NCBI GenBank assembly: GCA_963676835.2
Contig: CAXXFF010000001.1
Location: 320,001 to 384,000 of the forward strand
Source: Marispirochaeta sp.
Lineage (GTDB): Bacteria > Spirochaetota > Spirochaetia > JC444 > Marispirochaetaceae
Length of the DNA: 64,000 nt
Direction of reading: 5' to 3'
Each line of letters starts with the position of its first letter. The first letter of the stretch is position 1. The position numbers were made by a program, and so were the translations under genes. The notes under the pieces are model-generated. The model ran no database searches and was not told the DNA's origin. It saw nothing but the letters and a program-made list of their open reading frames with translations. This document shows positions 18,579 to 41,687 of this stretch, piece after piece.

Positions 18579-18650
<72 letters not shown>

Positions 18651-18656
18651 CTACTT

Positions 18657-20230: not shown

Positions 20231-20713
20231 TTATGAACAGTTTTTTCCGATCTTACTCCTGATTGATTTAACTAACTTGAGTATCAATCCAGTTTGAAAT
20301 GCACTAACCAATGCACCTTCACAAAACCGGTCCTGCCGAACAATAGCTGTTGTGAGTTTGCACATTGTGGGGACATCCAGTGTATCTATATAGTCATCAA
20401 TATTATTATAAAGTTCGTTTCCGTATTCCCATGATGGCCAATCGAAAACAATTATAATGGGTATTTCATATACTATATGTATAAACCGGGTTATAACATC
20501 GGAATGTTTACAGTGGAGAGATCCGACACTACCCGTAGCCGAATTATTTCCGTATTCCCACTCTCCGAAACTCTGCGTCTGTTCTATTTCCGGTATCAGA
20601 TCAAATAACGGTTTCCATTCTTCAAGAGTATAGCTGCTTATTCGTTCTACATAATTGTCTTCATTCAGTTCTAAATCAGCCATGCTACGATCCTTTAGAG
20701 TATTTTGGTTCAT
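20231..20713 (-). CDS. DUF6508-like protein
   Basis: FDWPSW...LTTAIVRQDRFCEGAL..AFQTG pattern. Confidence 0.7.
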   Translation of the reverse strand: MNQNTLKDRSMADLELNEDNYVERISSYTLEEWKPLFDLIPEIEQTQSFGEWEYGNNSATGSVGSLHCKHSDVITRFIHIVYEIPIIIVFDWPSWEYGNELYNNIDDYIDTLDVPTMCKLTTAIVRQDRFCEGALVSAFQTGLILKLVKSIRSKIGKNCS

Positions 20714-24879: not shown

Positions 24880-25177
24880 TCAATCTACCAAGAATCTGTA
24901 ACCTGCTGCTATTATAATATCAAGGTTATAGTATTTCTGCGTCCATCTGACTTTTCTCGTGCCCTCAGTTTGAACTTGTAAGAAATCCTTACAAGTTGCC
25001 CTCTTCCAGTTCCTTTTCATTATAGATGGTTCTCAGATGCAGCGTTATGTTCTGTGGAGTAGTGTCAAAAAGTTCGGCTATAGATTTCTGGGTCAGCCAA
25101 ACGGTTTCTCCATCAAACTGAACCTGGACTTCAACCAGGTTATCCGAGCTTTTAAATATTTTGATTTTGTTTTCCAT
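24880..25177 (-). pseudogene. Frameshifted, truncated RhuM-family remnant
   Basis: MENKIKIF...ETVWLTQKSIAELF...NITLHLRTIY...ELEE, continuing in another frame as ATCKDFLQVQTEG...YYNLDIIIAAGYR then stop; collinear with the N-terminus of 31254..32231. Confidence 0.85.
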
Positions 25178-25357
25178 ACGGAGACCTCCTGTATGAATAA
25201 CCGAAGAATCCAGAGACTGCTTCATAACTCATATTGCAGCCTTTTCTCGCCTGATCCGCCCGGGTAGAACTGAGGCCGTTCAGTAATCGGCATTCTTAAT
25301 AAATCTGCTGCAGCAGGTTTGATCAGGCTGTCGCAGTCAAAAAAAGTGCTCTTTTAA

Positions 25358-25386
25358 TTGACAATCAGCCTCTGCGGACTTAATAT
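25358..25386 (+). promoter_or_regulatory. sigma70 promoter for the riboswitch/ADP-ribosylglycohydrolase transcript
   Basis: TTGACA-N17-TAATAT; predicted start about 25393, matching the 5' end of the aptamer. Confidence 0.75.
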
Positions 25387-25392
25387 TGTGAA

Positions 25393-25447
25393 GGACGTGA
25401 TTTGCCCTCCGGCTTGCAGCGTCCGAAAACAAATTGCTAAAAGGAGG
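25393..25447 (+). promoter_or_regulatory. SAM-II (SAM-alpha) riboswitch
   Basis: GGACG-UGAUUU-GCCCUCCGGC-UUGCAG-CGUCC-GAAAACAAAUU-GCUAAAA-GGAGG: P1 GGACG/CGUCC, SAM-II core elements UGAUUU, UUGC and GCUAAA, and CCUCC complementary to SD GGAGG 8 nt before the GTG. Confidence 0.85.
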
Positions 25448-25455
25448 AATCCAGC

Positions 25456-26478
25456 GTGATTCTACCCAATCAACCAAATAACGTTTCTCTCTATTCCCGT
25501 ATTAAAGGTGGTATCTTCGGCACCGCTATAGGCGATGCTTTAGGCGTACCGGTGGAGTTTCTCAAACGGAATGTAATTGCCCCTAATCCAGTTACCGGTA
25601 TGCGGGGATGGGGAACACACAACCAGCCTCCGGGAACCTGGTCCGACGATACGTCTATGGCCCTCTGCGTTCTTGAATCCATCAATAAAAAGGGATGGAG
25701 CATCGATGACCAGGCAGTGCGTTTTGTGCGCTGGCTGGGGAAGGCCCACCTCACCGCTCATGATGAAGTCTTTGATGCCGGCAGGGCTACCGCCCAGGCG
25801 ATAGAACGTATTTCCGACGGATGGGAGCCTCTGGAGGCGGGCTGCTTTGAGGAGGATTCAAACGGTAACGGATCCCTTATGCGGAACCTTCCCGGGGCTG
25901 TCTACTGCACAACTCTTCTCAGTGATGCTGAAACGGTACAGAATATTTCAGATTCATCGGCAATTACCCATGCACATGCCAGAAGCAGGCTTGGATGTGT
26001 AATTCATGCTTTCCTGGTAAGCGGACTGCTCAAGGGTATGCGAATCGATGAGGCGAATATTAATGCAGCGGAGAAGACAGAATCTGTATTGAGCACAAGT
26101 TCGCTTTTTGCCGACATGAGACAGGAGCTCCCTCGCTACCATTTCATCCTTCATGACAATCTTGAACTTGCAGACATTTCAGAAATAAAGGCTACAGGCT
26201 ATGTGGTCGACACCCTTGAAGCTGCGGTCTGGTGCCTGCTTACCAGTCAATCCTTTGAAGAATGTGTGCTTAAAGCGGTTAATTTGGGAGAGGATACCGA
26301 TACGGTCGGTGCTGTCGCCGGCGGGCTTGCGGGAATTTACTGGGGATACGAGAGCATCCCTTCTGAGTGGGTCGATGCTCTGGCGAAACAGGAGATGATC
26401 GGATCCATGACGGATGAGTTTAACACTGTTCTTGAGAGTTCGGGTGCCAGTTCCCTTACAGACGGGGGTATCAAATGA
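25456..26478 (+). CDS. ADP-ribosylglycohydrolase family protein
   Basis: GDALG, WSDDT, GNGSLMR, ITH, GEDTDT. Confidence 0.95.
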   Translation: MILPNQPNNVSLYSRIKGGIFGTAIGDALGVPVEFLKRNVIAPNPVTGMRGWGTHNQPPGTWSDDTSMALCVLESINKKGWSIDDQAVRFVRWLGKAHLTAHDEVFDAGRATAQAIERISDGWEPLEAGCFEEDSNGNGSLMRNLPGAVYCTTLLSDAETVQNISDSSAITHAHARSRLGCVIHAFLVSGLLKGMRIDEANINAAEKTESVLSTSSLFADMRQELPRYHFILHDNLELADISEIKATGYVVDTLEAAVWCLLTSQSFEECVLKAVNLGEDTDTVGAVAGGLAGIYWGYESIPSEWVDALAKQEMIGSMTDEFNTVLESSGASSLTDGGIK

Positions 26479-26666
26479 GCGATGAACAGGAAAATAAAGG
26501 CTCTAAGGTATTTGCCCATATAGGGCCGTATGCATGCAGAAGACGGGATCCGCTCTTCGATATGCCGCGGAAAACACAACGGCTGATGAAGCTTGTAGAT
26601 GAAATTGTGGCCCAGGAGCTTGAGAAAAAGTTATCCGAATATAAAGCGGAAGCCCATAATGAGTGA
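26475..26666 (+). CDS. Small hypothetical protein
   Basis: 63 aa; ATGA overlap with the upstream stop; GGGGG SD. Confidence 0.5.
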   Translation: MSDEQENKGSKVFAHIGPYACRRRDPLFDMPRKTQRLMKLVDEIVAQELEKKLSEYKAEAHNE

Positions 26667-26723
26667 TTTTGATGAATGCGACAAAAGCCGTCATCGACAT
26701 AGTTCAATTTAACCGTCTATTCC

Positions 26724-27818
26724 TTAACGGGCATAGCGTTTTACTGCCTGGTCTATCAGCTCGAATACTCTGCCGTCATCGGCCGATCCGGTCCTTCCGG
26801 AAAGGCCGGTGATCCAGGATTCGGGTAAGGCATTTTTTCCATGCAGCGCTCCGACTGCCATCCCGACAATTGCCGCAATGGTATCGTTATCCACCGTGTC
26901 GTTAACCGCTCTTACAATGGCTTCATCCGGGTCATGTCCGTACCTGGCGAGAATGAAAAGTACGCTGGGAACGGTCTCCAGGAGATATGCACCGGCGTAC
27001 CACCGGTTACATGCGTCGAGTACGGAGACACCTCTGTCTACCGCGGTTCGTACTTCTGTGTTGACGAAATCAGAAAGCCTGCCCTGGAAGCCTGAAAAAT
27101 AAGGGGACCGTGATGTGTAGGTTTTTTCAGTCTCCAGCTTCGATGCCAGTTCCACATACCGGTTAATCCACCAGTGAGCGGCCGGCGGTGCTTCCATGTA
27201 CAGCAACTCCCGCAGCATAAGCCCGAATGCGGCACAGGCGGATATTGAGGCTGAATCGTTATGGGTGACCATGGAACCCAGGGCTATATCGGCTATAAGC
27301 TCCTCCCCTCCCTTCAGCAGCGACGGCAGGATTAACGGGGCAACCCGCATGAGAGCGCCGTTTCCCGCGGATTCCGGGGCCGCTTCCTGCCAGGGCTTCC
27401 CCAGGGCGCGGGCCATCAGAAACTGTTTTACCGAGTTGCCGATGCCGAATATATGGCCACGCATAAATCTGTCTGAAATGTGTGAGGGATCTACCCTGCC
27501 GTCTGCAAGAATTTGTTCCAGGGCCCAAAAGCTTAACTGAGTATCGTCTGTTGGAAGGCCAATTGCTTTTCCGGCGGCATATCGGTTCGGGAGATAGCCG
27601 CGGATTTCTCCGTACCGGGATTTACGTGCGTCCGGGAGCATTCCTTCAGATGTGTTGCCGAGAGAGTCGCCTATGGCAAGGCCGCAGAGCATGCCGGAGA
27701 GGCGGTCAGTACGCAGCAGAGCATGTACTGGCATAATAGAACCGGTCAAATGTTGGTAGTGTTTGGCTCGAACAGCACCATTATCTATCAGTGTGGATAA
27801 TAATCGGGTATTTGTCAT
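26724..27818 (-). CDS. ADP-ribosylglycohydrolase family protein
   Basis: GDSLG, PTDDT, AGNGALMR, VTH, VDNDT. Confidence 0.95.
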   Translation of the reverse strand: MTNTRLLSTLIDNGAVRAKHYQHLTGSIMPVHALLRTDRLSGMLCGLAIGDSLGNTSEGMLPDARKSRYGEIRGYLPNRYAAGKAIGLPTDDTQLSFWALEQILADGRVDPSHISDRFMRGHIFGIGNSVKQFLMARALGKPWQEAAPESAGNGALMRVAPLILPSLLKGGEELIADIALGSMVTHNDSASISACAAFGLMLRELLYMEAPPAAHWWINRYVELASKLETEKTYTSRSPYFSGFQGRLSDFVNTEVRTAVDRGVSVLDACNRWYAGAYLLETVPSVLFILARYGHDPDEAIVRAVNDTVDNDTIAAIVGMAVGALHGKNALPESWITGLSGRTGSADDGRVFELIDQAVKRYAR

Positions 27819-27819
27819 T

Positions 27820-28536
27820 CTATACTGTTCTGTGGCGCTTTTCCCACTCCAGAATAAAAATCAGTATCGAATAAACTTCTTTAACTTTAAAGGACAAGAA
27901 AATTTGGTCTCCATGCGCAATACCATTTCTCAATGGAATCAATTTATCCTTTATTTTAGCCAATTCTTTATCTTTACAAGAACAAAGGTACAAATTTATT
28001 TTATCCGAAAAGAGCAAACACTCTTGAATCGATATTTCTTCATTTCTTTTCTTTTTCTTTTCGAATGTTTTCAATATTTGTTTTTCTCGATCTTCACCCA
28101 TCTTCTTCAAACATTCAGTCATCTCGTTCTTTTCAATTTTCTGTATACACTTTGTAATCGTGTTCTCAAAAACAACGAAAAATGTAAACAGATAGGCTTT
28201 CATCAAAGATTTTTCCAAATCTGCAACTGTAACAATGTATCCGACTACAGAACTCTTCATCAAAAAAACAAAGCGTTGGCTTGATAATGATTTCAAAAGG
28301 TCGATGAATGGAGTATAAGCAGATAATAACTGTTTTAAGCTGATCGGGACTGCTTTACCTTCCAAAACATCGAAGTATTTCTCGATAGATCCATCGCTAT
28401 TCCTGATACCAATTACATCAAAATCTTTTCTTATTTTATCTTTTTCGAATGGCGGTGTTATCGTTTCCAACGATGATGCCAGGTATTGCGCCTGATAAAT
28501 GTTATCCAAGCTGTTCATTAAACTGTTCATTATCAC
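27820..28536 (-). CDS. Putative degenerate CBS pair fused to a HEPN domain
   Basis: FDVIGIR...FVFL...GYIVTVADL (CBS-like), then FE helix and LRNGIAH (RxxxxH). Confidence 0.6.
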   Translation of the reverse strand: MIMNSLMNSLDNIYQAQYLASSLETITPPFEKDKIRKDFDVIGIRNSDGSIEKYFDVLEGKAVPISLKQLLSAYTPFIDLLKSLSSQRFVFLMKSSVVGYIVTVADLEKSLMKAYLFTFFVVFENTITKCIQKIEKNEMTECLKKMGEDREKQILKTFEKKKKRNEEISIQECLLFSDKINLYLCSCKDKELAKIKDKLIPLRNGIAHGDQIFLSFKVKEVYSILIFILEWEKRHRTV

Positions 28537-28578
28537 CTTCCTGGTTCATATGCTGTACTATAACATAAAAGGATTTCA

Positions 28579-28971
28579 ATGATGTTATCGGAAACAGAAG
28601 CACTCCGCATGTACGCTGCTATGTTTAATACTCTTGATGAAAGCTGCCTTGAGCCCATTCTTCACGAAGACTTTCGTTTTTCTTCCCAGATGGTACTTGA
28701 AGAAATTTCTTCAAAAGAAGCATTTATTCACTATATCCGCGGGAAATTACAAACAATCCGGAACGCCAAAGCATCCGTATATGCCGAGATGGGAACAATC
28801 ACCTTCAACAAGGTCCCAAGACCATGTGTTCTGCTTGCGCAGGATTCCAGGGATAATCTCGTCGGTTTAGCTATTGCAGAGACTTCTGAGGGTCTTTTAC
28901 ACCGAATCGATCTCTGTATTGTACCGTCGCCGAAGGAAGCTGAACGAACCGGCAATTATCCGGAGAGGTAA
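28579..28971 (+). CDS. NTF2/SnoaL-like fold hypothetical protein
   Basis: YAAMFNTLD..LEPILHEDFRFSS...AFIHY pattern. Confidence 0.5.
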   Translation: MMLSETEALRMYAAMFNTLDESCLEPILHEDFRFSSQMVLEEISSKEAFIHYIRGKLQTIRNAKASVYAEMGTITFNKVPRPCVLLAQDSRDNLVGLAIAETSEGLLHRIDLCIVPSPKEAERTGNYPER

Positions 28972-31215: not shown

Positions 31216-32415
31216 TAACCACGACAGCCGCGAAAGGGTCACGACATGGTTTATCACTCATCGCTGCTGCGATTGAGGATGCTGATTATAAGCTTTTTAA
31301 CCGTTTCTGATTCTTCAGGTTTGCTGACCGCGACAAACAGCGTCATTGCAGCCAGGGTCTCGTTGTCGATTACGGGTTTTCCGTTTTCCTGCAGCAATGC
31401 ATGGTTCTGCTGCAAAAAATAGAGAAAACATGCGGCGGCTATACGTTTGTTGCCATCCACAAATGAGTGGTTCTTGGTAATAAAGTACAGCAGGTTTGCA
31501 GCCTTTTCTTCCATGGTCGGGTATAGTTCCTTTCCCCCGAAGCTCTGCTGAATCTGATTTACCGAACTCTCAAAGCTTTCATCCTTGGGCTGTGCGAAAA
31601 CACCGGAGGCAAAATCGGAGTACATACCTTCAATAAGTGCAAGGTAGTCTCGTACTGCCGGGTATACAATGCTGCAGCTGGTTTTGCCTTTTTCATCAAG
31701 GTCTTCATGATCGTAGTCATCCAGTAAAGCAAGGCCTCTGGAAAAGAGCTGGAACACCTCCCGGTTCTTGTCATCAGTTACGTCTTCAATGGCCCGGTTG
31801 ATAATGCGGATTCCGGTTTTCAGGTATTCCACTTCCTGCTGTTTCTGTGCAAGTCGCTTCTTGTTAACAGCAAAGCCTTTTACCAGATAATCCTTCAGCC
31901 GGGCTGTTGCCCATTTACGGAACTGGGTTCCCCGTTTTGAATTTACGCGGTATCCTACGGAGATTATAGCATCCAGATTGTAGATCATAACTGAGCGCCG
32001 CACATGGCGTTTCCCTTCAAGTTGAACTACCGAGGATTGCTCGGTAGTTGCAGATTCATCGAGCTCGTCAGATGCATAGATATTCTTGAGGTGCAGTCCT
32101 ATCGTATCAGAGTCTTTATCGAACAGCTGTGCCATCTGCTTCTGAGTAAGCCAGACGGTATCTTCATCAAACTGTACCCGGATTTCGGTTGTGTTATCAG
32201 TTGTAGTGTATATTTCGATTTTGTTTTCCATGTCCTGCCCCCATTATTATAACCCGGATTTTGCCATTCTGATTCTTCCGCTTCAGTGATATTCCATACA
32301 ATAACTGCGGTTAGCCGCCTGCCGGTGCATAAAACAGAGTTGTGACAGTTGTGAATGTCGTGGTTGAGGGGTTTTGTTTACAGGCTAACCATGACCTTCA
32401 CGAAAAGGCACGACG
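31216..32415. repeat. Three degenerate ~30-nt repeats (31216-31246 +, 32340-32365 -, 32386-32415 +) around the RhuM-Fic gene
   Basis: TAACCACGACAGCCGCGAAAGGGTCACGAC; AACCACGACATTCACAACTGTCACAA (reverse strand); TAACCATGACCTTCACGAAAAGGCACGAC. Confidence 0.45.
31254..32231 (-). CDS. RhuM-Fic/Doc fusion protein
   Basis: YNLDAIISVGYRVNSKRGTQFRKWAT (RhuM) and HSFVDGNKR (Fic/Doc). Confidence 0.92.
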   Translation of the reverse strand: MENKIEIYTTTDNTTEIRVQFDEDTVWLTQKQMAQLFDKDSDTIGLHLKNIYASDELDESATTEQSSVVQLEGKRHVRRSVMIYNLDAIISVGYRVNSKRGTQFRKWATARLKDYLVKGFAVNKKRLAQKQQEVEYLKTGIRIINRAIEDVTDDKNREVFQLFSRGLALLDDYDHEDLDEKGKTSCSIVYPAVRDYLALIEGMYSDFASGVFAQPKDESFESSVNQIQQSFGGKELYPTMEEKAANLLYFITKNHSFVDGNKRIAAACFLYFLQQNHALLQENGKPVIDNETLAAMTLFVAVSKPEESETVKKLIISILNRSSDE

Positions 32416-34147: not shown

Positions 34148-34331
34148 TATTGATCACCCATACTTCATAAACCCGTTTCATAGTACCATTGTTTTTTGTT
34201 CCAATTCCATTATTTTGAAGTTTTTAAGAAGTAGCTACCTGGCAAAAGGAAAGTATTCTTGTTAAAATCATGTGTTGAGTTATTTGTTTGTAGGTTTAGA
34301 TGACACAAACCTTATCAGCAGAAGGTGTAAA

Positions 34332-35891
34332 GTGAGTAAAACAATACCAGTAATAGATTTATTTGCCGGACCGGGCGGACTTGGCGAAGGATTTTCATCT
34401 CTCAGACCGACTTCCGGAAACAGATTTAAAATCAGAATGTCTGTTGAAATGGAAGAATCAGCTCATAAAACACTGACCCTGCGTGCATTCTACAGACAAT
34501 TTCCGGATAAGGATTCTGTACCCGAAGAATATTATGATTTTATAGGCAAACCTTATTCTGATAACAACCTTCAAAAGCTTCTTGATAGTTTCCCTGAAGG
34601 GGAAGATGCTAGAGATGAAGCATGTCGACTTACCCTTGGTAAGGATAATGAAATTATTCATTCAAAAATTGAAAAGATTGTCAGCACATTTAAACCTGAA
34701 CAAGACTGGGTTCTTATCGGAGGTCCTCCATGTCAGGCTTACTCTCTCGCCGGTAGAGTCAGGAATATGGGGAAGAAAAACTATAAAGCCGAAGAGGATC
34801 ACAGACATTTTTTGTACCGTGAATATCTGGAAATAATCGGGCGTTACCATCCTTCAGTATTTGTTATGGAAAACGTAAAAGGCATTCTTTCTTCGAACGT
34901 TGGAGGGCAGAATATATTCTCAAATATAATTAAAGATCTCCAGAAGCCGAATGAAGTCGTTATAAATCCGAACGGTAAAAAAGCTGAGTACAAACTCTAT
35001 TCCCTTGTTAAAGAGTCACCTCCTGATCAAATACATGATCCCAGAGATTTCATCATTAAAAGTGAAGAATATGGTATTCCCCAGAAAAGGCATAGAGTAA
35101 TAATACTTGGAGTCAGAAAAGATATTGATACTGTCCCAAGGCCCCTGGAAAAAGCAAACAAAGTCTCTGTAAAAAAGGCAATTTCTGATTTACCTCCCCT
35201 GAGAAGCGGCCTTTCAAAAGTTAAGGATGACACTTCATCCGATTGGATAAAGGCAATAAGTAAAATACCTCAATTTAAAAAGAAAGATTTTTTGAGCCCT
35301 CCGGAAAAGATTTCCGAATTAAATAAAGAAATACATTTCGCAATCTCATTACTTGATAAAACCTTAACAACATCTATATCAAAACCATTAAAAAAGAAGT
35401 ATAGAAATGCTATTTTCAACCCAGACTGGTACATTAATGAAAGACTTAAAAACATCTGCAATCACGAAAGCAGGACCCATATTGATTCCGATCTTCATCG
35501 TTATCTGTTTGTGTCCTGTTTCGGAAAATTATACGGAAGATCCCCCAAGCTGAATGAATTCCCAGCTGCTCTTCTACCAAATCATAAAAATGCATGTGAA
35601 CATTCAGTTATAAGTAAATTTGTAGATCGTTTTCGTGTTCAACTAGCAGAAAGCCCTTCAACAACAATTACCTGTCACATTTCAAAAGATGGCCATTATT
35701 ATATTCATCCGGATCCTACCCAGTGCCGTAGTCTTACGGTGAGAGAAGCAGCCAGATTGCAAACATTTCCTGATGACTATTTCTTTTGCGGCCCGAGGAC
35801 AAAACAGTATCATCAGGTGGGAAACGCAGTACCTCCACTTCTGGCAAATCAGATTGCTGAGATAGTAATGGATTCATTTGAGGACATCTGA
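34332..35891 (+). CDS. dcm: DNA (cytosine-5)-methyltransferase (start probably GTG 34332)
   Basis: DLFAGPGG, GGPPCQ, MENV, PQKRHR, TVREAARLQTFP, QVGNAVP. Confidence 0.95.
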   Translation: MSKTIPVIDLFAGPGGLGEGFSSLRPTSGNRFKIRMSVEMEESAHKTLTLRAFYRQFPDKDSVPEEYYDFIGKPYSDNNLQKLLDSFPEGEDARDEACRLTLGKDNEIIHSKIEKIVSTFKPEQDWVLIGGPPCQAYSLAGRVRNMGKKNYKAEEDHRHFLYREYLEIIGRYHPSVFVMENVKGILSSNVGGQNIFSNIIKDLQKPNEVVINPNGKKAEYKLYSLVKESPPDQIHDPRDFIIKSEEYGIPQKRHRVIILGVRKDIDTVPRPLEKANKVSVKKAISDLPPLRSGLSKVKDDTSSDWIKAISKIPQFKKKDFLSPPEKISELNKEIHFAISLLDKTLTTSISKPLKKKYRNAIFNPDWYINERLKNICNHESRTHIDSDLHRYLFVSCFGKLYGRSPKLNEFPAALLPNHKNACEHSVISKFVDRFRVQLAESPSTTITCHISKDGHYYIHPDPTQCRSLTVREAARLQTFPDDYFFCGPRTKQYHQVGNAVPPLLANQIAEIVMDSFEDI

Positions 35892-35893
35892 TT

Positions 35894-36313
35894 GTGGACA
35901 AGCTTACTCCGGAAAAGCGAAGCTGGAATATGTCCCGTATAAAGAACAGGGATACAAAGCCTGAAATCAGAGTCAGGTCATTTCTTCATAGCGCTGGATT
36001 CCGATTCAGACTTCACAGAAAGGATCTTCCAGGAAAACCTGATATAGTTCTTCCAAAGTATAAAACTGTTATATTTATTCATGGTTGCTACTGGCATCGC
36101 CATCCAGGTTGTAAGAACGCTACTACACCGAAAACAAGAACTGACTTCTGGGAAGATAAATTCAGGGATAATGTAGCTCGCGATAAAAGAAATATTAAGG
36201 ATTTGAAAGATCTCGGCTGGAAAGTAATTGTCATCTGGGAATGTGAGACTGAGAGCTATGAAAAAATGCAAATAGCTTTATCCCCATTTCTTTCTACAAA
36301 GTTGAATGACTAA
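35894..36313 (+). CDS. vsr: Very short patch repair endonuclease
   Basis: RSWNMSRI, DTKPE, LPGKPD, FIHGCYWH, IWEC. Confidence 0.96.
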   Translation: MDKLTPEKRSWNMSRIKNRDTKPEIRVRSFLHSAGFRFRLHRKDLPGKPDIVLPKYKTVIFIHGCYWHRHPGCKNATTPKTRTDFWEDKFRDNVARDKRNIKDLKDLGWKVIVIWECETESYEKMQIALSPFLSTKLND

Positions 36314-36350
36314 TAGGCATGTTACTCCAACCAGATATTTTCTAAATATG

Positions 36351-39209
36351 CTATATATGAACAACTGGTGAATTTATATTTTCAATATTTCGGACTGACC
36401 ATTTGTGTATAAATCCAAGATTGTTTTTGGGATATGTAATCGACCATCCCAAGGTTGGCGTCTTATTATCTTTTTTTACAAAATATATAAGAACAACAGC
36501 TGTAGATGTATTTCTGAGGTTTTTTGTTGATTCATTTGGTGTTAACAGCTTGTAATGTCCACTTTCTGGTAATTCCCATCCGGCAACATACTTTGCCGTT
36601 GCTGAATCAATTGGATCTGAATAAACTCCGAATGGACCACCATTTGAACGTGTCCTACGATGCCTGATCGATATTTTATGTTTCAGTAATTCTTGCGTAC
36701 CATTTTTTTCATTAGTTAATAGTGGTGCAAGAAACAGCATTCTTTGCATACCATGATTTTCATTTGAAATAAAATCAAGTTGATAATTAACAGATTCAGG
36801 TATGACTTTATTCCATTTGTAATTCTTTAAAAACTGAAGACCATTTATTATTGATGTTGTCCAGTAGTAAGAAGAGAATTCTTTTTTACCTTTATCTTTA
36901 AATATCCCACCAAGAATGTCTCTATGTACATTAGTTGTAGTGAATATTTCTTCAAATAATGCTATATTGAACTTGTCTGTTTTTGCATCTGGTATAGTAG
37001 TGGGCTCATTGTAAGTTTTACCATAATTCCATGAAGTAATTTTAGCATTATACATTTTGTTTTTAGCTGTGGGTTTGATTTCTGAAAAAGCTTGAACGAG
37101 TGGTGGTACTTGTAGTGGCGTGAGTTTTTTATCAGAAGAAACGTATCGCTTTAATTCCTGACGAAGATGAGCTTCCATTCTACTGGTAGCACGGAATGAT
37201 TCAAGTAGATCGATATTCTTTTTGCCCTCATCAATGCCAATAAATAGTCTAACTAGATCACAATATCCTTTACGAAAACCGAACCATCGACCCATTTGCA
37301 TCAATGTATCCCCCTGGGAGGTTATACGGCGATAATAACTAATTGTTAGATCTTCTATGGTGTATCCTCTGGATAGTTTATCTCCACCAATTATCACCGA
37401 CCAGATTGGTTCCAATTCAAAATCAGGATTGTTTTTATTGTCACCATTTACAATTATTGTTCTAAGATTTCCCGAACATTCAGTGATTTTACCAATACAA
37501 TTTTGTATGTAAGGAATCAAATCCTGAAAAGAATCAGGCAAAGGAAGATCTGCATTGATATGCTCTGAAGTTGGACGATAGTCTTCGTTCCAAAGTTGTT
37601 GAATTTTAAACAGTCCATCTGTACCTTGAAAATTACAGTCTTCCCATGTTTTTTTAACTAAAGCCTCAATCTCATTGTGTTTAAGCTTTGTTCTTGAGAT
37701 ATGAACAAGCATAGTATGGTGTTTAAAAGGAGCTAAGCTTGAGTGTTTATCTTTTCTGAATAGTTTGATTGCACCTGAAAGAACAAAAGCAGTTAAGGCA
37801 ATCGAAAGATCGTCCTGTTCGTTATGACTGGATTTGACTTTTTTGATAAAATATTTCTCATTTGAATTAGGATCATTATCAATATTGAAGAAGTCACGCG
37901 CACCCATATAATCAGAGGGTGGCTCCGGAAGAGTAATTATAAAATCTTTTGGAAATAGGTCATCAACATCATCAGGGTTAATAAATACATTTGCATATGG
38001 GGTTGCAGTATAACCTACATACTGGCACCTAGGCATTATTTTAAGCACATCAATAATATTTCCATTAACTTTTCGACGTTCCTCAAGTTCTTTTTTGTTC
38101 GGTCGCCGTGTATCTATTGATGCTTGATCAGATTCATCATCTATTAGTAAAGTAGGTATTTCATTAAGTAATCCTTTGTATTTAAGATTAAGTTTTGTGA
38201 GATCTGCTATTAGTTTAGAAATGATTTGTGCATTCTTTTTTATTACGAGCACATTGATCTTGGCACGAGGAGAGAAAAGATTTGTTGCGCAGTGAAGAGG
38301 AAGATCTTTGTCTTCTTTCTCTGGTACCAGTATGTTGAGGGTATCAGACAGCAATCGTTTGTAATCTTCTTCTAGAGTAGTTATGCGATTCCAACCAAAA
38401 AGATTGTGAGGTTTTTTGTTGTGATTCACAAAATCAGCCCATTCAGAATCTTCAAGAGTTTTGTAATCATCGTCATATTTTAGGGATGGACAACCTATTA
38501 ACCCTTTGTCAATTCTTCGTTGTGTTTGTTTGCGTAGTATGTTCCAAGGACCTGCAAGTATTATAAACATTTTGTAACCAGCATCAGCAGCTTTGGCCAG
38601 TAGTGCTGAAAAGTTGGCTGTTTTACCACTCTGCACATAACCGACTACAAGTCCACGGGCAGAATATGCTTCTTCCCGGTAAGGAGCTGAAAGTCGTTCA
38701 AGGATTGATTGAGCGCCGTTTCCCAAATCAATTGTCGATGCCGGGTTCCACCCATTGGATAGGAGGTAACGTTCATATGATTTCCAGAAGTAATCAGATG
38801 TATTAATACGCGTATCATACCAATTTATGTGCTCATCTGCTATCACAACAGGAGTTTGTATTTTAAAAGGGAGTTGTTTGTCCCAGAAATCAGACAGTTG
38901 TGATGGTATACAAAGTAATTTGTATATTTCTTTGCGACGATTATAGCTGGCTAGAGGAAACTTATTTAACTGAACAATTGATTTATCATGATCCCATTTG
39001 GTAATAAGACTATGAAAATCTGTCAAGATCTCATCGGAGGCATTCGCGGCCAAAATATATTTTGATAAAAATATGAGTCCATTATCGTTAAGCTCATTAT
39101 TTTGGTCAATTGAAGAAAGCAAACTTGAGACAGAACAAGGACCTTTCACTTTCAGCAAGCTTAAAACAGCATTATACATTGTTCTTTGTCTATAAGTATT
39201 TTTAATCAT
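36351..39209 (-). CDS. Z1-domain SF2 helicase-like protein
   Basis: GYVQSGKT, IDDESD, YTATP, HHTMLVH, LSRGYT, DTLMQMGRWFGFR. Confidence 0.92.
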   Translation of the reverse strand: MIKNTYRQRTMYNAVLSLLKVKGPCSVSSLLSSIDQNNELNDNGLIFLSKYILAANASDEILTDFHSLITKWDHDKSIVQLNKFPLASYNRRKEIYKLLCIPSQLSDFWDKQLPFKIQTPVVIADEHINWYDTRINTSDYFWKSYERYLLSNGWNPASTIDLGNGAQSILERLSAPYREEAYSARGLVVGYVQSGKTANFSALLAKAADAGYKMFIILAGPWNILRKQTQRRIDKGLIGCPSLKYDDDYKTLEDSEWADFVNHNKKPHNLFGWNRITTLEEDYKRLLSDTLNILVPEKEDKDLPLHCATNLFSPRAKINVLVIKKNAQIISKLIADLTKLNLKYKGLLNEIPTLLIDDESDQASIDTRRPNKKELEERRKVNGNIIDVLKIMPRCQYVGYTATPYANVFINPDDVDDLFPKDFIITLPEPPSDYMGARDFFNIDNDPNSNEKYFIKKVKSSHNEQDDLSIALTAFVLSGAIKLFRKDKHSSLAPFKHHTMLVHISRTKLKHNEIEALVKKTWEDCNFQGTDGLFKIQQLWNEDYRPTSEHINADLPLPDSFQDLIPYIQNCIGKITECSGNLRTIIVNGDNKNNPDFELEPIWSVIIGGDKLSRGYTIEDLTISYYRRITSQGDTLMQMGRWFGFRKGYCDLVRLFIGIDEGKKNIDLLESFRATSRMEAHLRQELKRYVSSDKKLTPLQVPPLVQAFSEIKPTAKNKMYNAKITSWNYGKTYNEPTTIPDAKTDKFNIALFEEIFTTTNVHRDILGGIFKDKGKKEFSSYYWTTSIINGLQFLKNYKWNKVIPESVNYQLDFISNENHGMQRMLFLAPLLTNEKNGTQELLKHKISIRHRRTRSNGGPFGVYSDPIDSATAKYVAGWELPESGHYKLLTPNESTKNLRNTSTAVVLIYFVKKDNKTPTLGWSITYPKNNLGFIHKWSVRNIENINSPVVHI

Positions 39210-39232
39210 ATTTTAGCCTCATTTTATAAAAT

Positions 39233-40216
39233 TTAAAATAATTCTAATAGAATACTGTCTTCAAGGTCTTTTCCGTATGACTCTAAATCAATTTTATATA
39301 TAACATCTCCTAAACGATCTTGAAGGGGCGCGTAAATATTATCTATATCGTTTGGAATGCGTGGGAAATCGTCATTTACTGGGATCATTTTAGGTAATGA
39401 TCTCAACTTTAATGAGAGTCTGCTATAAAATACTTCGTGGTCAGAACGGTATCCAAAAGTTTGTAGCTTCATGTTGAAGTCTAATAGATTTTCGTTGCTA
39501 AGGATGTTACGAATTTCAGAAACAAGACCAGGCAATGTAATTAAATCAGTTCCTGAGGCTTCCATGAACTGTAAAGATATAAAGAAGAGCTTGCAATCGA
39601 TACTGGGGTATGGTTGATTTAGTCCATTTATTATATGGATACGTTTTGTTTTTAAAGTTGATTTCACTTCAAATTCTAAATCTCCGTACCTGAAATCATG
39701 AGGTTCATTTATTGGCCCAATCCATCCATTTGGAGTTAGACCCATATTTATAGAAATTAATCTTTTGAGAAAATATAACTCGCCGATGAGACCTAGAATG
39801 TTTTTATCCGAGAGCGATGGTTTGGATGCTATGAGACCTTCAAGGTTAGATAAAGCTTGATCGATAGCAGAATCGCAGGGGATATTATCACGGTCCATTA
39901 GAATAGCAACGTCTATTACAAATGTATAGAATTCACTAAATAATGTTTTATCATTTGTCCAAATCTCATAATAAGAATTATTATTATTGTAAGTGGTAAT
40001 AGAAATGTTCTGTAATTTATTTATCCTTTTAAAGAGCGAATCTGAAATAGAAGAATTTACTTCAACACCAAATAGCGATGAATTCCCTCGTGATAAAAGT
40101 GTAAGGTAATTACTTCCTGGGATTTTATATCGTCTTTCAACACCAGCTCCAATTAGTATGGACTCAATTTGTCCCCAGTTTGCAAAATTGTTAGATTGCA
40201 TCTGATTTATTATCAT
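39233..40216 (-). CDS. PD-(D/E)XK motif protein (DUF4420)
   Basis: GLIGELYFL, WIGP...HDF...EVKST...HIINGLNQ. Confidence 0.88.
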   Translation of the reverse strand: MIINQMQSNNFANWGQIESILIGAGVERRYKIPGSNYLTLLSRGNSSLFGVEVNSSISDSLFKRINKLQNISITTYNNNNSYYEIWTNDKTLFSEFYTFVIDVAILMDRDNIPCDSAIDQALSNLEGLIASKPSLSDKNILGLIGELYFLKRLISINMGLTPNGWIGPINEPHDFRYGDLEFEVKSTLKTKRIHIINGLNQPYPSIDCKLFFISLQFMEASGTDLITLPGLVSEIRNILSNENLLDFNMKLQTFGYRSDHEVFYSRLSLKLRSLPKMIPVNDDFPRIPNDIDNIYAPLQDRLGDVIYKIDLESYGKDLEDSILLELF

Positions 40217-41687
40217 CCAATAATGTTAAAAGTATCTTCTGAAGAAATTTGATCTTGTTATTAGCCTTTAAACCACTTCTTTGGATGACAAGATAATCTT
40301 CAAGCAACAGAAATAAAAATAATGGAAATAACTCATCTAATGGGATTTTTTTCATGGAATCTTTTAATGCTGTTGAAATTAGTATCTGACCCGCCCCACG
40401 ATCAATCCGAAACATTTCATCTTTATTAAGTTTTTTCCAGAAAATTTCAATATCATCGGAATCTTTTGTCTTGATTCCTTTGTGGTCAGCTAACAAGGTT
40501 CTATAAAAAGACTTGATTTCCCCAGAAGGCAGAACTGCTTCTTTGGAATTTGGTTTTGATGAACTGCTCCGGTATAGGGTATTGGCTAATGTAAGACAAT
40601 CATTAAATTTTGTTCCGCCTTTGGAAGTGGTAATCATAATTTGCTCAAAAAACTCTTCAGGTAAGTCAATTGAGGATTTCTTTATGTCGAGACGAACAAG
40701 ATCATCCAAAGTTGACGGGAGATCAATCTCCACACGGCACAGAGAGAGATGAGGCTCGCTCTCACGCATCCCATTCCAACCACCTGCTTGTAATAACCGA
40801 TTATTTCTGAAAATATATAATCCTTGTCTTGTATTTGCGCCTCCCGGCAGTTTGTATTCACGGGATTGACAATTAGGAGGCCAGATATGAACTCGGGCAC
40901 GAATCTGACTATCACCAATAGAAATGATGAAATCCTTAGGATATTGATCATGACCAGAGTGTGGGTAACCAAATGGATTTAATGCATGTATACTTTCTGG
41001 TGGGTATGGTGAGCCTCTCTCTTCGATATTTGTTTCAACAAGTATTTTTATTTTATTTTGAGCAAGATGCCTATGGTATATAAGACCAAGATGTGATCGA
41101 AGTTTATTTGACATTTTTGTTACAATTTTTTCAGAAAGTTTTTCATTTAGATTTAAGCGATCTAGCCCAAGCAGTGTGACAACCGTGCCAGAGGAAGCAT
41201 TCTTCCCTGAAGATGCTTTCGTGAGCATATTCATACAGTAGTCTTGTCTAAGTTCCGCAACTTTGTTTTCAGATAAAGTAGAAACTGTAGCGCGTAATCC
41301 ATAAATTTCTCCTCCAGCTTCATGAGATACAACATCAAACATAGGTGCCTGACTGAGGCTAGCAAGTTTAAGTCCCATACCGAATTTACCGAGCTGGAGA
41401 CTGTCTTTGTCTGTATCGCTACCTATTCGCATGGCTTCCTGTAGTATGGGTTTTGCCATCCCTGAGCCATTGTCCCAAATGGATAGGTCTAAACTTCCTT
41501 TAGTATTGAGGATAAAACGTATCACAATTATATCTGCTTGGGCATCAACGGAGTTATCGATTATATCTGCTATTGCTTGGGGCATTTGATATCCGATTGA
41601 GCGAAGCGCTTGTATTACCCGAGCCATTTGAGGAGGAATATCTATCATGCAATCTTTTTTTACAGATGTTCTCACAAAGTTGCTCAC
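40191..41687 (-). CDS. GHKL/MORC-family ATPase
   Basis: ADIIDNSVDA, DNGSGM, LGKFGMGLKLAS, GTVV; QGLYIFRNNRLL (S5-like). Confidence 0.9.
   Translation of the reverse strand: MSNFVRTSVKKDCMIDIPPQMARVIQALRSIGYQMPQAIADIIDNSVDAQADIIVIRFILNTKGSLDLSIWDNGSGMAKPILQEAMRIGSDTDKDSLQLGKFGMGLKLASLSQAPMFDVVSHEAGGEIYGLRATVSTLSENKVAELRQDYCMNMLTKASSGKNASSGTVVTLLGLDRLNLNEKLSEKIVTKMSNKLRSHLGLIYHRHLAQNKIKILVETNIEERGSPYPPESIHALNPFGYPHSGHDQYPKDFIISIGDSQIRARVHIWPPNCQSREYKLPGGANTRQGLYIFRNNRLLQAGGWNGMRESEPHLSLCRVEIDLPSTLDDLVRLDIKKSSIDLPEEFFEQIMITTSKGGTKFNDCLTLANTLYRSSSSKPNSKEAVLPSGEIKSFYRTLLADHKGIKTKDSDDIEIFWKKLNKDEMFRIDRGAGQILISTALKDSMKKIPLDELFPLFLFLLLEDYLVIQRSGLKANNKIKFLQKILLTLLDDNKSDAI

Follow-up and report, generated by a model that had tools for sequence, protein, structure and literature searches.

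The subject of this analysis is a leader RNA and the gene directly behind it in a 64,000-nucleotide (nt) stretch of the Marispirochaeta sp. genome (assembly GCA_963676835.2, contig CAXXFF010000001.1, positions 320,001 to 384,000 of the forward strand), which we refer to as the window and number from its first nucleotide. The gene, ARH1, encodes an ADP-ribosylglycohydrolase (ARH) of 340 amino acids (aa), and the leader is, as judged from its sequence, a SAM-II aptamer. SAM-II RNAs sense S-adenosylmethionine (SAM) through a ligand-stabilized H-type pseudoknot that occludes the Shine-Dalgarno (SD) sequence. The locus consists of a promoter, the paired strands (P) and loops or linkers (L) of the aptamer, the ARH1 gene and a short open reading frame (ORF) coupled to it:

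25358–25363 and 25381–25386, plus strand: sigma-70-like promoter, TTGACA and TAATAT separated by a 17-nt spacer, matching 10 of 12 consensus positions
25384–25460, plus strand: SAM-II (Rfam SAM_alpha) aptamer and expression platform, as delimited by the Rfam match
25393–25397, plus strand: P1 5′ strand, GGACG, read in the sequence and in an alignment of 34 leaders
25398–25404, plus strand: L1, UGAUUUG, U-rich strand of the triplex; GUGAUUU shows little or no variation in the 34 leaders
25406–25410, plus strand: P2a 5′ strand, CCUCC, the anti-SD; perfect complement of GGAGG at 25443–25447
25414–25417, plus strand: P2b 5′ strand, UUGC, pairing with GC(U)AA
25420–25424, plus strand: P1 3′ strand, CGUCC, read in the sequence and in the 34-leader alignment
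25425–25435, plus strand: L3, GAAAACAAAUU, an A-rich linker with a conserved AAA.AA core
25436–25442, plus strand: GCUAAAA, the P2b 3′ strand and conserved adenines, from the Rfam alignment and the 34 leaders
25443–25447, plus strand: GGAGG, the SD of ARH1 and P2a 3′ strand, 8 nt before the GTG at 25456
25456–26478, plus strand: ARH1, 340-aa ADP-ribosylglycohydrolase of the Tri1/Lmo0067/DraG type (PF03747, 1.9e-76, profile positions 1–287 of 287)
26475–26666, plus strand: putative gene (ORF call), an orphan 63-aa ORF overlapping the ARH1 stop codon by ATGA

The segments left between the aptamer elements are a single G (L1 to CCUCC), GGC (CCUCC to UUGC) and AG (UUGC to CGUCC). All nine P2 pairs can form in this leader, all five pairs of P2a involve the SD, and its P2a is the longest and most perfect among the leaders compared. 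An initial annotation of this DNA had described a promoter, aptamer elements, a GTG start, an ARH gene and an ATGA-coupled 63-aa ORF, and every one of them lies where it was placed. Its naming of the RNA as SAM-II was borne out by the full-length family match given below, and the complementarity of CCUCC to the GGAGG of the ARH gene that it pointed out corresponds to the usual SAM-II OFF architecture. The hydrolase identity likewise held, with a PF03747 match and both conserved acidic motifs intact, as did its description of the surroundings as a defence island, which agrees with the PADLOC matches and Pfam domains around ARH1. The predicted transcription start falls directly 5′ of P1. Promoter-like sites are equally common in shuffled sequence (six in 25000–28800 against 5.5 ± 2.0 in shuffles), so that the TTGACA-17-TAATAT match carries no significance alone and the promoter is supported by where it lies and by the TTGAC box, which is retained in two homologous leaders (G001 and L034; G numbers denote sampled genomes of the class, with G000 for the window's own, and L numbers denote loci).

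Family membership of the leader is well defined. The Rfam model SAM_alpha (RF00521) matched 25384–25460 over its full length (model positions 1–79 of 79) with 43.1 bits, the gathering score being 36, at an E-value of 2.2e-6 in the window and 3.5e-8 in the genome. When the whole window was scanned with cmscan against Rfam 15, only two matches rose above their gathering scores, a tRNA and SAM_alpha, and the RF00521 search gave no match in any of 14 control genomes. The leader keeps every nucleotide that is conserved in the Rfam consensus, the U-rich L1 and the GCUAAA tail included. With R1, a covariance model of our own built from spirochaete leaders, it scores 74.6 bits, a value obtained on a member of the model's training set. 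Across 34 distinct leaders, the P1 helix is 97.1% paired and its outermost pair is AU in 10, CG in nine, UA in five, GC in three and GU in two, with five unpaired. Overall, 87.7% of cells are paired compared with 25–46% when the partners are slid, and none of 500 shuffles reaches the observed covariation score, which is not a probability because the leaders are related. The pattern shared by these leaders is GACGUGAUUU(R)...UUGC.GCGUC...AAA.AA..GCUAAAA(A)GGAG, with the start codon 7–10 nt further on. In a second local subtype, the loop contains a GGGG..CCCC hairpin.

The GTG at 25456 as the start of ARH1 is backed by the orthologue in G001, which has an ATG 3 nt later. The nearest relatives of the protein with solved structures are Lmo0067 (PDB 8za7, 1.8e-64) and Tri1 (PDB 6dre, 1.6e-42) as well as DraG (2.2e-26), and its SDDTS and GEDTDT motifs, which we take to be the metal-binding acidic motifs of ARH enzymes, align with identical motifs in Lmo0067 and Tri1. 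Scores well under the NCBIfam equivalog cut-offs for Tri1 (NF041672, 178 against 490 bits) and DraG (TIGR02662, 140 against 337 bits) indicate that ARH1 is of the Tri1/DraG type yet is neither of the two. By homology, ARH1 is most likely a metal-dependent hydrolase that would cleave ADP-ribose from an arginine of a protein target, an arginine-type substrate being suggested by its membership of the Tri1/Lmo0067/DraG type. Neither ARH1 nor the 63-aa ORF matches any PADLOC-DB 2.0 family at E ≤ 0.001, and the 63-aa ORF has no match in Pfam, NCBIfam or PADLOC. The same genome carries a 60%-identical ARH1 paralogue (G000:C1:84198-85124) and, 3 kb past it, a fragment corresponding to residues 156–323 only (G000:C1:88085-88588). 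A search of the genome contigs with ARH1 gave a distant one, at 41%, as the sole related locus. Further close orthologues of the protein are P0003 (70%), P0004 (65%) and P0005 (61%). Among the 120 best ARH1 homologues, three (P0082, P0111 and P0115) are fused to DUF6508 (PF20118) and eight others to PTP-like phosphatase domains.

Within its own genome, the window leader is the single RF00521 match, and R1 likewise finds this copy only. SAM-I (RF00162) has no match in the genome, and the metK gene on contig 2 has no upstream Rfam match even at E ≤ 5. Based on these results, the organism's sole recognizable SAM riboswitch would control an ARH gene, and with this cargo the leader departs from the methionine or SAM-gene control expected of its class.

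We then examined the distribution of the aptamer in the class Spirochaetia. RF00521 matched 12 of 151 sampled genomes at E ≤ 0.001, eight of them above the cut-off, and R1 gave 25 matches at E ≤ 0.01 in 22 of the 151. The genes behind these R1 matches, which we call cargos, are as follows:

ARH, 2 of 25: G000 and G001
Orphan family of about 200 aa, 6 of 25: G016, G121, G042, G052, G118 and G097
FGase-domain proteins (PF05013), 4 of 25: G077 (L080), G143 (L084), G118 (L086) and G097 (L085)
metK, 1 of 25: G099
'MQYTP' family of about 125 aa, 1 of 25: G017 (L004/L019)
Other unknown proteins, 7 of 25: G104, G005, G070, G099 (a second match, on contig 91), G074, G120 and G065
ORF not usable or 3′ half broken, 2 of 25: G100 and G057

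The remaining matches, in G132 and G031, lack the core and were set aside as probable false positives. Orphan proteins thus make up 14 of the 25 R1 cargos. In the ~200-aa family, the last two types (G118 and G097) are joined by hhalign at 99.5%; its ADP_PFK_GK atlas leads of 0.86–0.88 were rejected as they lie under the 0.9 bar, and its AlphaFold2 model (predicted local distance difference test, pLDDT, 54.2) was too poor for a fold search. G097 (L085/L093) and G118 (L086/L092) each carry two SAM-II leaders, one before an FGase-like gene and one before a member of the ~200-aa family. There are hints that the FGase cargos could represent an unrecognized methionine- or SAM-linked amidohydrolase. 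In G061, a SAM_alpha match with a different P1 (29.7 bits, below the cut-off and found by Rfam only) precedes metK. One leader of G100 (L021, 3058–3127, minus strand) lies at a contig end with its 5′ half intact, a 3′ tail reading GCUAACUGGAAG and no ORF after it, as in a decayed copy.

A pattern scan of metagenome contigs returned 37 loci; the pattern was taken from this subtype, and several loci duplicate each other or genome loci. Behind these leaders are 25 MQYTP genes, two metK genes (L032 and L041), two genes for a 137-aa protein and two for a shared family (L036 and L052), together with single cases of a 163-aa protein, the ~200-aa family, a Cys-rich protein, a 296-aa protein and a 260-aa protein, and one locus cut by the contig end. 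The same pattern gave no match in viral contigs. Of 20 loci submitted to Rfam, 10 passed its cut-off, L032 and L041 among them. The MQYTP family is the commonest cargo (26 of 46 loci). Its members are about 115–138 aa long and start with 'MQYTP...TETY...GMAGYDP', and their genes often stand behind an upstream ORF of 19–39 aa containing a CCUCCUG...CAGGAGG hairpin; in many leaders of the set, an ORF of this size likewise comes first and the main gene after it. The family has no match in Pfam, NCBIfam or PADLOC and nine close relatives in a set of 5.8 billion proteins, and its AlphaFold2 model (pLDDT 76.6) has no PDB fold match at E ≤ 0.001 and an atlas score of 0.76. An FGase-domain gene of 461–494 aa is convergent on the MQYTP gene in L042 and L053, and one metagenome contig (L043/L052) holds two SAM-II leaders with convergent orphan genes 3.8 kb apart. 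In L036 (2497–4905), the genes behind the SAM-II leader are, in order, a 29-aa ORF, one for an unknown protein of 365 aa that is related to the 150-aa cargo of L052, one for a protein of 178 aa and one for a Macro-domain protein of 170 aa (PF01661, 7.8e-45), the last of which may provide a second tie between the switch and ADP-ribose removal.

At least 11 unrelated cargo clusters were counted, and at least eight unrelated orphan families; metK was counted five times behind the subtype. By tblastn at E ≤ 1e-4, the window's genome has no match to any orphan cargo family, and the FGase family (PF05013) was not found there either. The distribution that appears new to us is that of one aptamer subtype, recognized here by sequence, which occurs class-wide in Spirochaetia mostly before genes of unknown function and seldom before methionine genes.

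The link between the leader and the ARH gene can be examined in one further genome. In G001, of the same genus, a 71%-identical ARH has a homologous leader directly upstream, with the TTGAC box, P1, CCUUCC and GGAGGAAUCC. Its core is mutated (GAUUU to GAUCU and UUGCUAAAAGG to UAGCCACAGG), it fails the ligand-pocket test, and it scores 38.1 bits with R1 and has no Rfam match at E ≤ 1. It looks as though the promoter-aptamer-SD module predates the two species or moved between them, with SAM sensing lost in one. Around the G001 gene the DNA is likewise accessory, with DrmE_C-like, PDDEXK_3 and FitA/PIN genes; HmaC is about 6.5 kb away. At E ≤ 1, Rfam finds nothing upstream of the ARH relatives in G001, G009, G020 and Planctomycetota (L002) or of the two paralogues in the window's own genome. 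The metagenome leader L034 is identical to the window aptamer at 53 of 55 positions, compared with 19 of 45 upstream and 8 of 25 downstream, and precedes an unrelated 22-aa ORF and a 296-aa protein. The near identity of the aptamer between differing flanks and cargos points to purifying selection acting on the aptamer and to a mobile cassette. The initial annotation had envisaged that relatives might carry this leader before a met gene with the ARH linkage confined to this strain. The former was found, with metK in L032, L041 and G099; the latter was not, since G001 shares the ARH.

From these observations, we consider it probable that the leader works as a SAM-II riboswitch and forms a translational OFF switch for the accessory ADP-ribosylhydrolase gene behind it, so that ARH1 would be made only at low SAM. 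Both SAM binding and the OFF logic we infer from the geometry of the leader together with the known behavior of SAM-II RNAs. In this mechanism, transcription would begin just upstream of P1. When SAM is plentiful, it would be held in the triplex of L1 and P2b, locking the H-type pseudoknot; the locked P2a, formed by CCUCC (25406–25410) and GGAGG (25443–25447), would bury the SD and leave ARH1 untranslated, along with the ATGA-coupled 63-aa ORF if that gene is real. A drop in SAM would free the 3′ tail and allow ARH1 to be made. The leader itself is one copy of a compact and portable promoter-aptamer-SD module, which in Spirochaetia has come to stand ahead of metK, of genes for FGase-like amidohydrolases and of no fewer than eight unrelated orphan families, with an ARH as the cargo in this genus.

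Several observations weigh against this reading. P2b (UUGC with GC(U)AA) is paired in 97.8% of cells but is essentially invariant and hence shows no covariation, and P2a is paired in 68%, with the inner CC/GG kept in 29–34 of the 34 leaders and the outer pairs varying. With the first of these arms invariant and the second conserved only at its CC/GG core, the alignment is compatible with the pseudoknot without being independent proof of it. The nested minimum free energy fold of the leader forms P1, but its z-score of −1.58, from a program that cannot model pseudoknots, is not unusual. No connection of ARH enzymes with SAM or methionine metabolism is known, and the coupled 63-aa ORF has one marginal relative (E 0.009) among 300 other class genomes. 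An intact aptamer precedes an ARH gene in one genome only, the sole other case, G001, being mutated; because the mutations fall on the L1 uridine and the GCUAAAA core, SAM control of the ARH seems dispensable in that lineage.

The surroundings of the locus are those of an accessory region. A tRNA-Gly(UCC) lies ahead of the island, and between 18 and 46 kb modules with a guanine-cytosine (GC) content of 0.35–0.40 alternate with host-like stretches of 0.45–0.50, in one of which ARH1 sits; the flanks are at about 0.50. PADLOC matches in the window comprise MzaB/C/D, PDC-S23 (RhuM-Fic), PDC-S11 and a GajB-like/NERD-UvrD helicase, to which Pfam adds Dcm with Vsr and HNH. The island further encodes DUF4268 (PDC-S11), DUF6508 and an EEP nuclease. 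At 34272–41687, a Dcm-type methyltransferase and Vsr adjoin Z1, DUF4420 and HATPase_c_3 proteins matching MzaC, MzaD and MzaB, respectively, forming a putative Mza-like system within a module of 0.35 GC. The UvrD/GajB-like helicase is 2.6 kb from ARH1. Downstream of ARH1 lies a convergent operon of a HEPN protein and a second ARH. The HEPN protein has 238 aa and an RNGIAH motif, with Pfam HEPN matches below the cut-off, and the second ARH has 364 aa and 24% identity to ARH1; neither is in PADLOC, and together they could form a toxin/antitoxin-like or conflict pair. The stretch 24989–25256, immediately ahead of the riboswitch promoter, is a 71–83% copy of sequence from 31496–32231 (repeats D1 and D5), which looks like a recombination scar at the 5′ border of the leader. 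Repeat D1 by itself joins 25065–25177 to 32119–32231 at 71% identity, within the RhuM-Fic gene at 31254–32231. The features concerned are:

18579–18651: tRNA-Gly(UCC), ahead of the island
20231–20713, minus strand: stand-alone DUF6508 (PF20118) gene
24989–25225, minus strand: 78-aa ORF running divergently from the switch; it copies part of the RhuM-Fic 5′ end (repeats D1 and D5)
26724–28536, minus strand: convergent operon, the HEPN protein (27820–28536) followed by the second ARH (26724–27818)

Why production of an ARH should be tied to low SAM can be explained in several ways, which we rank in the order of a regulatory or starvation role, hitch-hiking of the cassette, a guard against phage, a safety valve and an altered ligand. 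ARH1 might reverse a DraG-like regulatory ADP-ribosylation under methionine, SAM or nutrient limitation, with the switch supplying the signal. The regulon of the subtype includes metK and FGase-like amidohydrolases and so follows SAM physiology, GC is host-like around ARH1 and lower in the adjoining island modules, and the 60%-identical paralogue elsewhere in the genome implies that ARHs are native to the lineage. However, ARH1 scores far under the DraG equivalog cut-off, no target is known, and the DraT family (PF07357) has no match in the genome, a result that is uninformative as it is also unmatched in the controls. We therefore regard this explanation as unlikely, although it leads the ranking. 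It is somewhat more doubtful that the cassette is simply shuffled among accessory genes and that SAM dependence at ARH1 is tolerated rather than adaptive. Such shuffling would account for the near-identical L034 leader before unrelated genes, for the scar with its partial RhuM copy, for the decay of the aptamer before the same gene in G001 and for the number of unrelated cargo clusters; a neutral remnant, on the other hand, would not be expected to keep the aptamer so much better than its flanks, as seen in L034, or to have the longest and most perfect P2a of the set. The least credible explanation, which we consider very improbable, is that the subtype binds a compound other than SAM, such as ADP-ribose or an NAD-related adenosine compound. 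Cargos other than methionine genes do dominate, and two of them are ADP-ribose hydrolases (the ARH here and the Macro protein in L036), but the leader retains every position conserved in the Rfam consensus, and identical cores precede metK. The latter is the best available argument that SAM is the ligand of the subtype.

The other two explanations involve defence. The initial annotation had suggested an RNA-based sensor of SAM depletion by phage, which found no support in these data: the commonest cargos lie mostly in ordinary chromosomal contexts, ARH1 has no PADLOC match and viral copies were not found. In its fuller form, phage SAM lyases would deplete SAM and disable SAM-dependent defence, and the switch would turn on ARH1 or the orphan cargos as a back-up. 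The genome's only SAM riboswitch indeed sits within an island with the Dcm-linked Mza-like system, PDC-S23, PDC-S11 and the GajB-like helicase, and comparable neighbors occur elsewhere: the G052 cargo gene is divergent from HmaA (1585 bits), the G070 cargo is 2.5 kb from LmuB with an integrase near, the switch-led operon of G005 lies between a type I restriction endonuclease-like gene, a GajB-like helicase and an integrase, the G042 cargo is beside a PIN toxin, and the G001 ARH is close to HmaC; the operon of L036 that ends in the Macro-domain gene adds its ADP-ribose link. Defence islands gather accessory genes of all kinds, however, and these neighbor cases carry no statistic. None of the cargo families tested has a PADLOC match, the commonest cargo (MQYTP, 25 of the 37 metagenome loci) lies mostly between sugar-ABC and GGDEF genes, and G016, G017 and G104 have no defence-type domains nearby as judged by Pfam only. 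The metK and FGase-like cargos point to ordinary SAM and methionine physiology, the aptamer is decayed in G001, no phage or SAM lyase is known for the host, and one would not readily expect an effector to be a hydrolase that takes a modification off. All these make a guard of this type improbable. Still less probable is a safety valve against autoimmunity, in which SAM becomes too low for methylation of self-DNA and the switch makes a factor that damps or repairs methylation-dependent defence. In four cases, an orphan or ARH cargo has a methyltransferase-type system no more than about 8 kb away (Mza with Dcm for G000, Hma for both G001 and G052, type I restriction-modification for G005), but such proximity is anecdotal, G070 is beside Lamassu, which has no methyltransferase, no conserved pairing of cargo and system is seen, and there is no known route from ADP-ribosyl hydrolysis to nuclease control. 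A broader proposal, also doubtful in our view, is that the Spirochaetia SAM-II leader was recruited as an RNA sensor for genome-conflict genes, so that a collapse of SAM, through a phage SAM lyase or failing self-methylation, would turn on small accessory proteins and ADP-ribose-removing enzymes beside methyltransferase-based defence (Mza, Hma and type I restriction-modification). Were this true, a riboswitch would for the first time serve as a sensor for immunity or safety.

In textbooks, SAM riboswitches provide feedback control of methionine and SAM genes. The present aptamer is canonical but the regulated genes are not, ranging from an ARH in a defence island through FGase-like amidohydrolases to the orphan families. 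If the OFF switch on ARH1 works as its sequence implies, the SAM level would signal to processes outside SAM supply, several protein families otherwise without a clue would gain a first functional handle, and the question arises whether ADP-ribosylation or defence islands are coupled to the SAM pool by a metabolite-sensing RNA. Should the cassette have come to the ARH gene by accidental hitch-hiking, the locus still illustrates a promoter-aptamer-SD cassette of about 90 nt moving between genes. In the PMC and bioRxiv literature, we found no paper joining a SAM-II riboswitch with an ADP-ribosylglycohydrolase, none on Lmo0067 and, among the matches listed, none that connects SAM riboswitches to SAM lyases or to defence. 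Nor was an account of SAM-II regulons in spirochaetes found in the accessible parts of PMC8632094 and PMC5473149, the latter of which makes no mention of spirochaetes there and contains a distribution table that could bear on this point.

Compared with known systems, the leader resembles SAM-II RF00521 in its full-length model match, P1, U-rich L1, UUGC/GCUAA P2b, A-rich L3 and the SD in the 3′ strand of the pseudoknot, and some copies precede metK. The SAM-II pseudoknot of the metA/metX type is known from Alphaproteobacteria and Bacteroidota. In contrast, the present lineage is Spirochaetia, the GACG/CGUC core of P1 hardly varies, and the cargo is an ARH here and mostly orphan genes class-wide, often behind a 19–39-aa ORF. 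ARH1 shares the ARH fold and the SDDT and DTDT motifs with Tri1 (a Serratia immunity ADP-ribosylarginine hydrolase of the type VI secretion system), Lmo0067 (Listeria) and DraG; it differs from Tri1 and DraG in falling below the equivalog cut-offs, and no adjacent ADP-ribosyltransferase was identified. We know of no riboswitch control of Tri1, Lmo0067 or DraG. A further ARH-like protein, DarG3, is the antitoxin of the helicase-containing DarHTG defence system, a variant of DarTG, as described in the accessible part of PMC13069673. By that description, the ARH1 locus likewise combines an ARH-fold hydrolase in a defence context with a helicase, but no DarT-like gene was recognized beside ARH1, and the neighbor of the second ARH is the HEPN protein. 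Guard-type sensors of phage counter-defence include systems triggered by Ocr or by inhibition of RecBCD. The ARH1 leader would share with them only the proposed logic of detecting a side-effect of an anti-defence factor: those sensors are proteins, whereas here it would be an mRNA leader that reads a metabolite.

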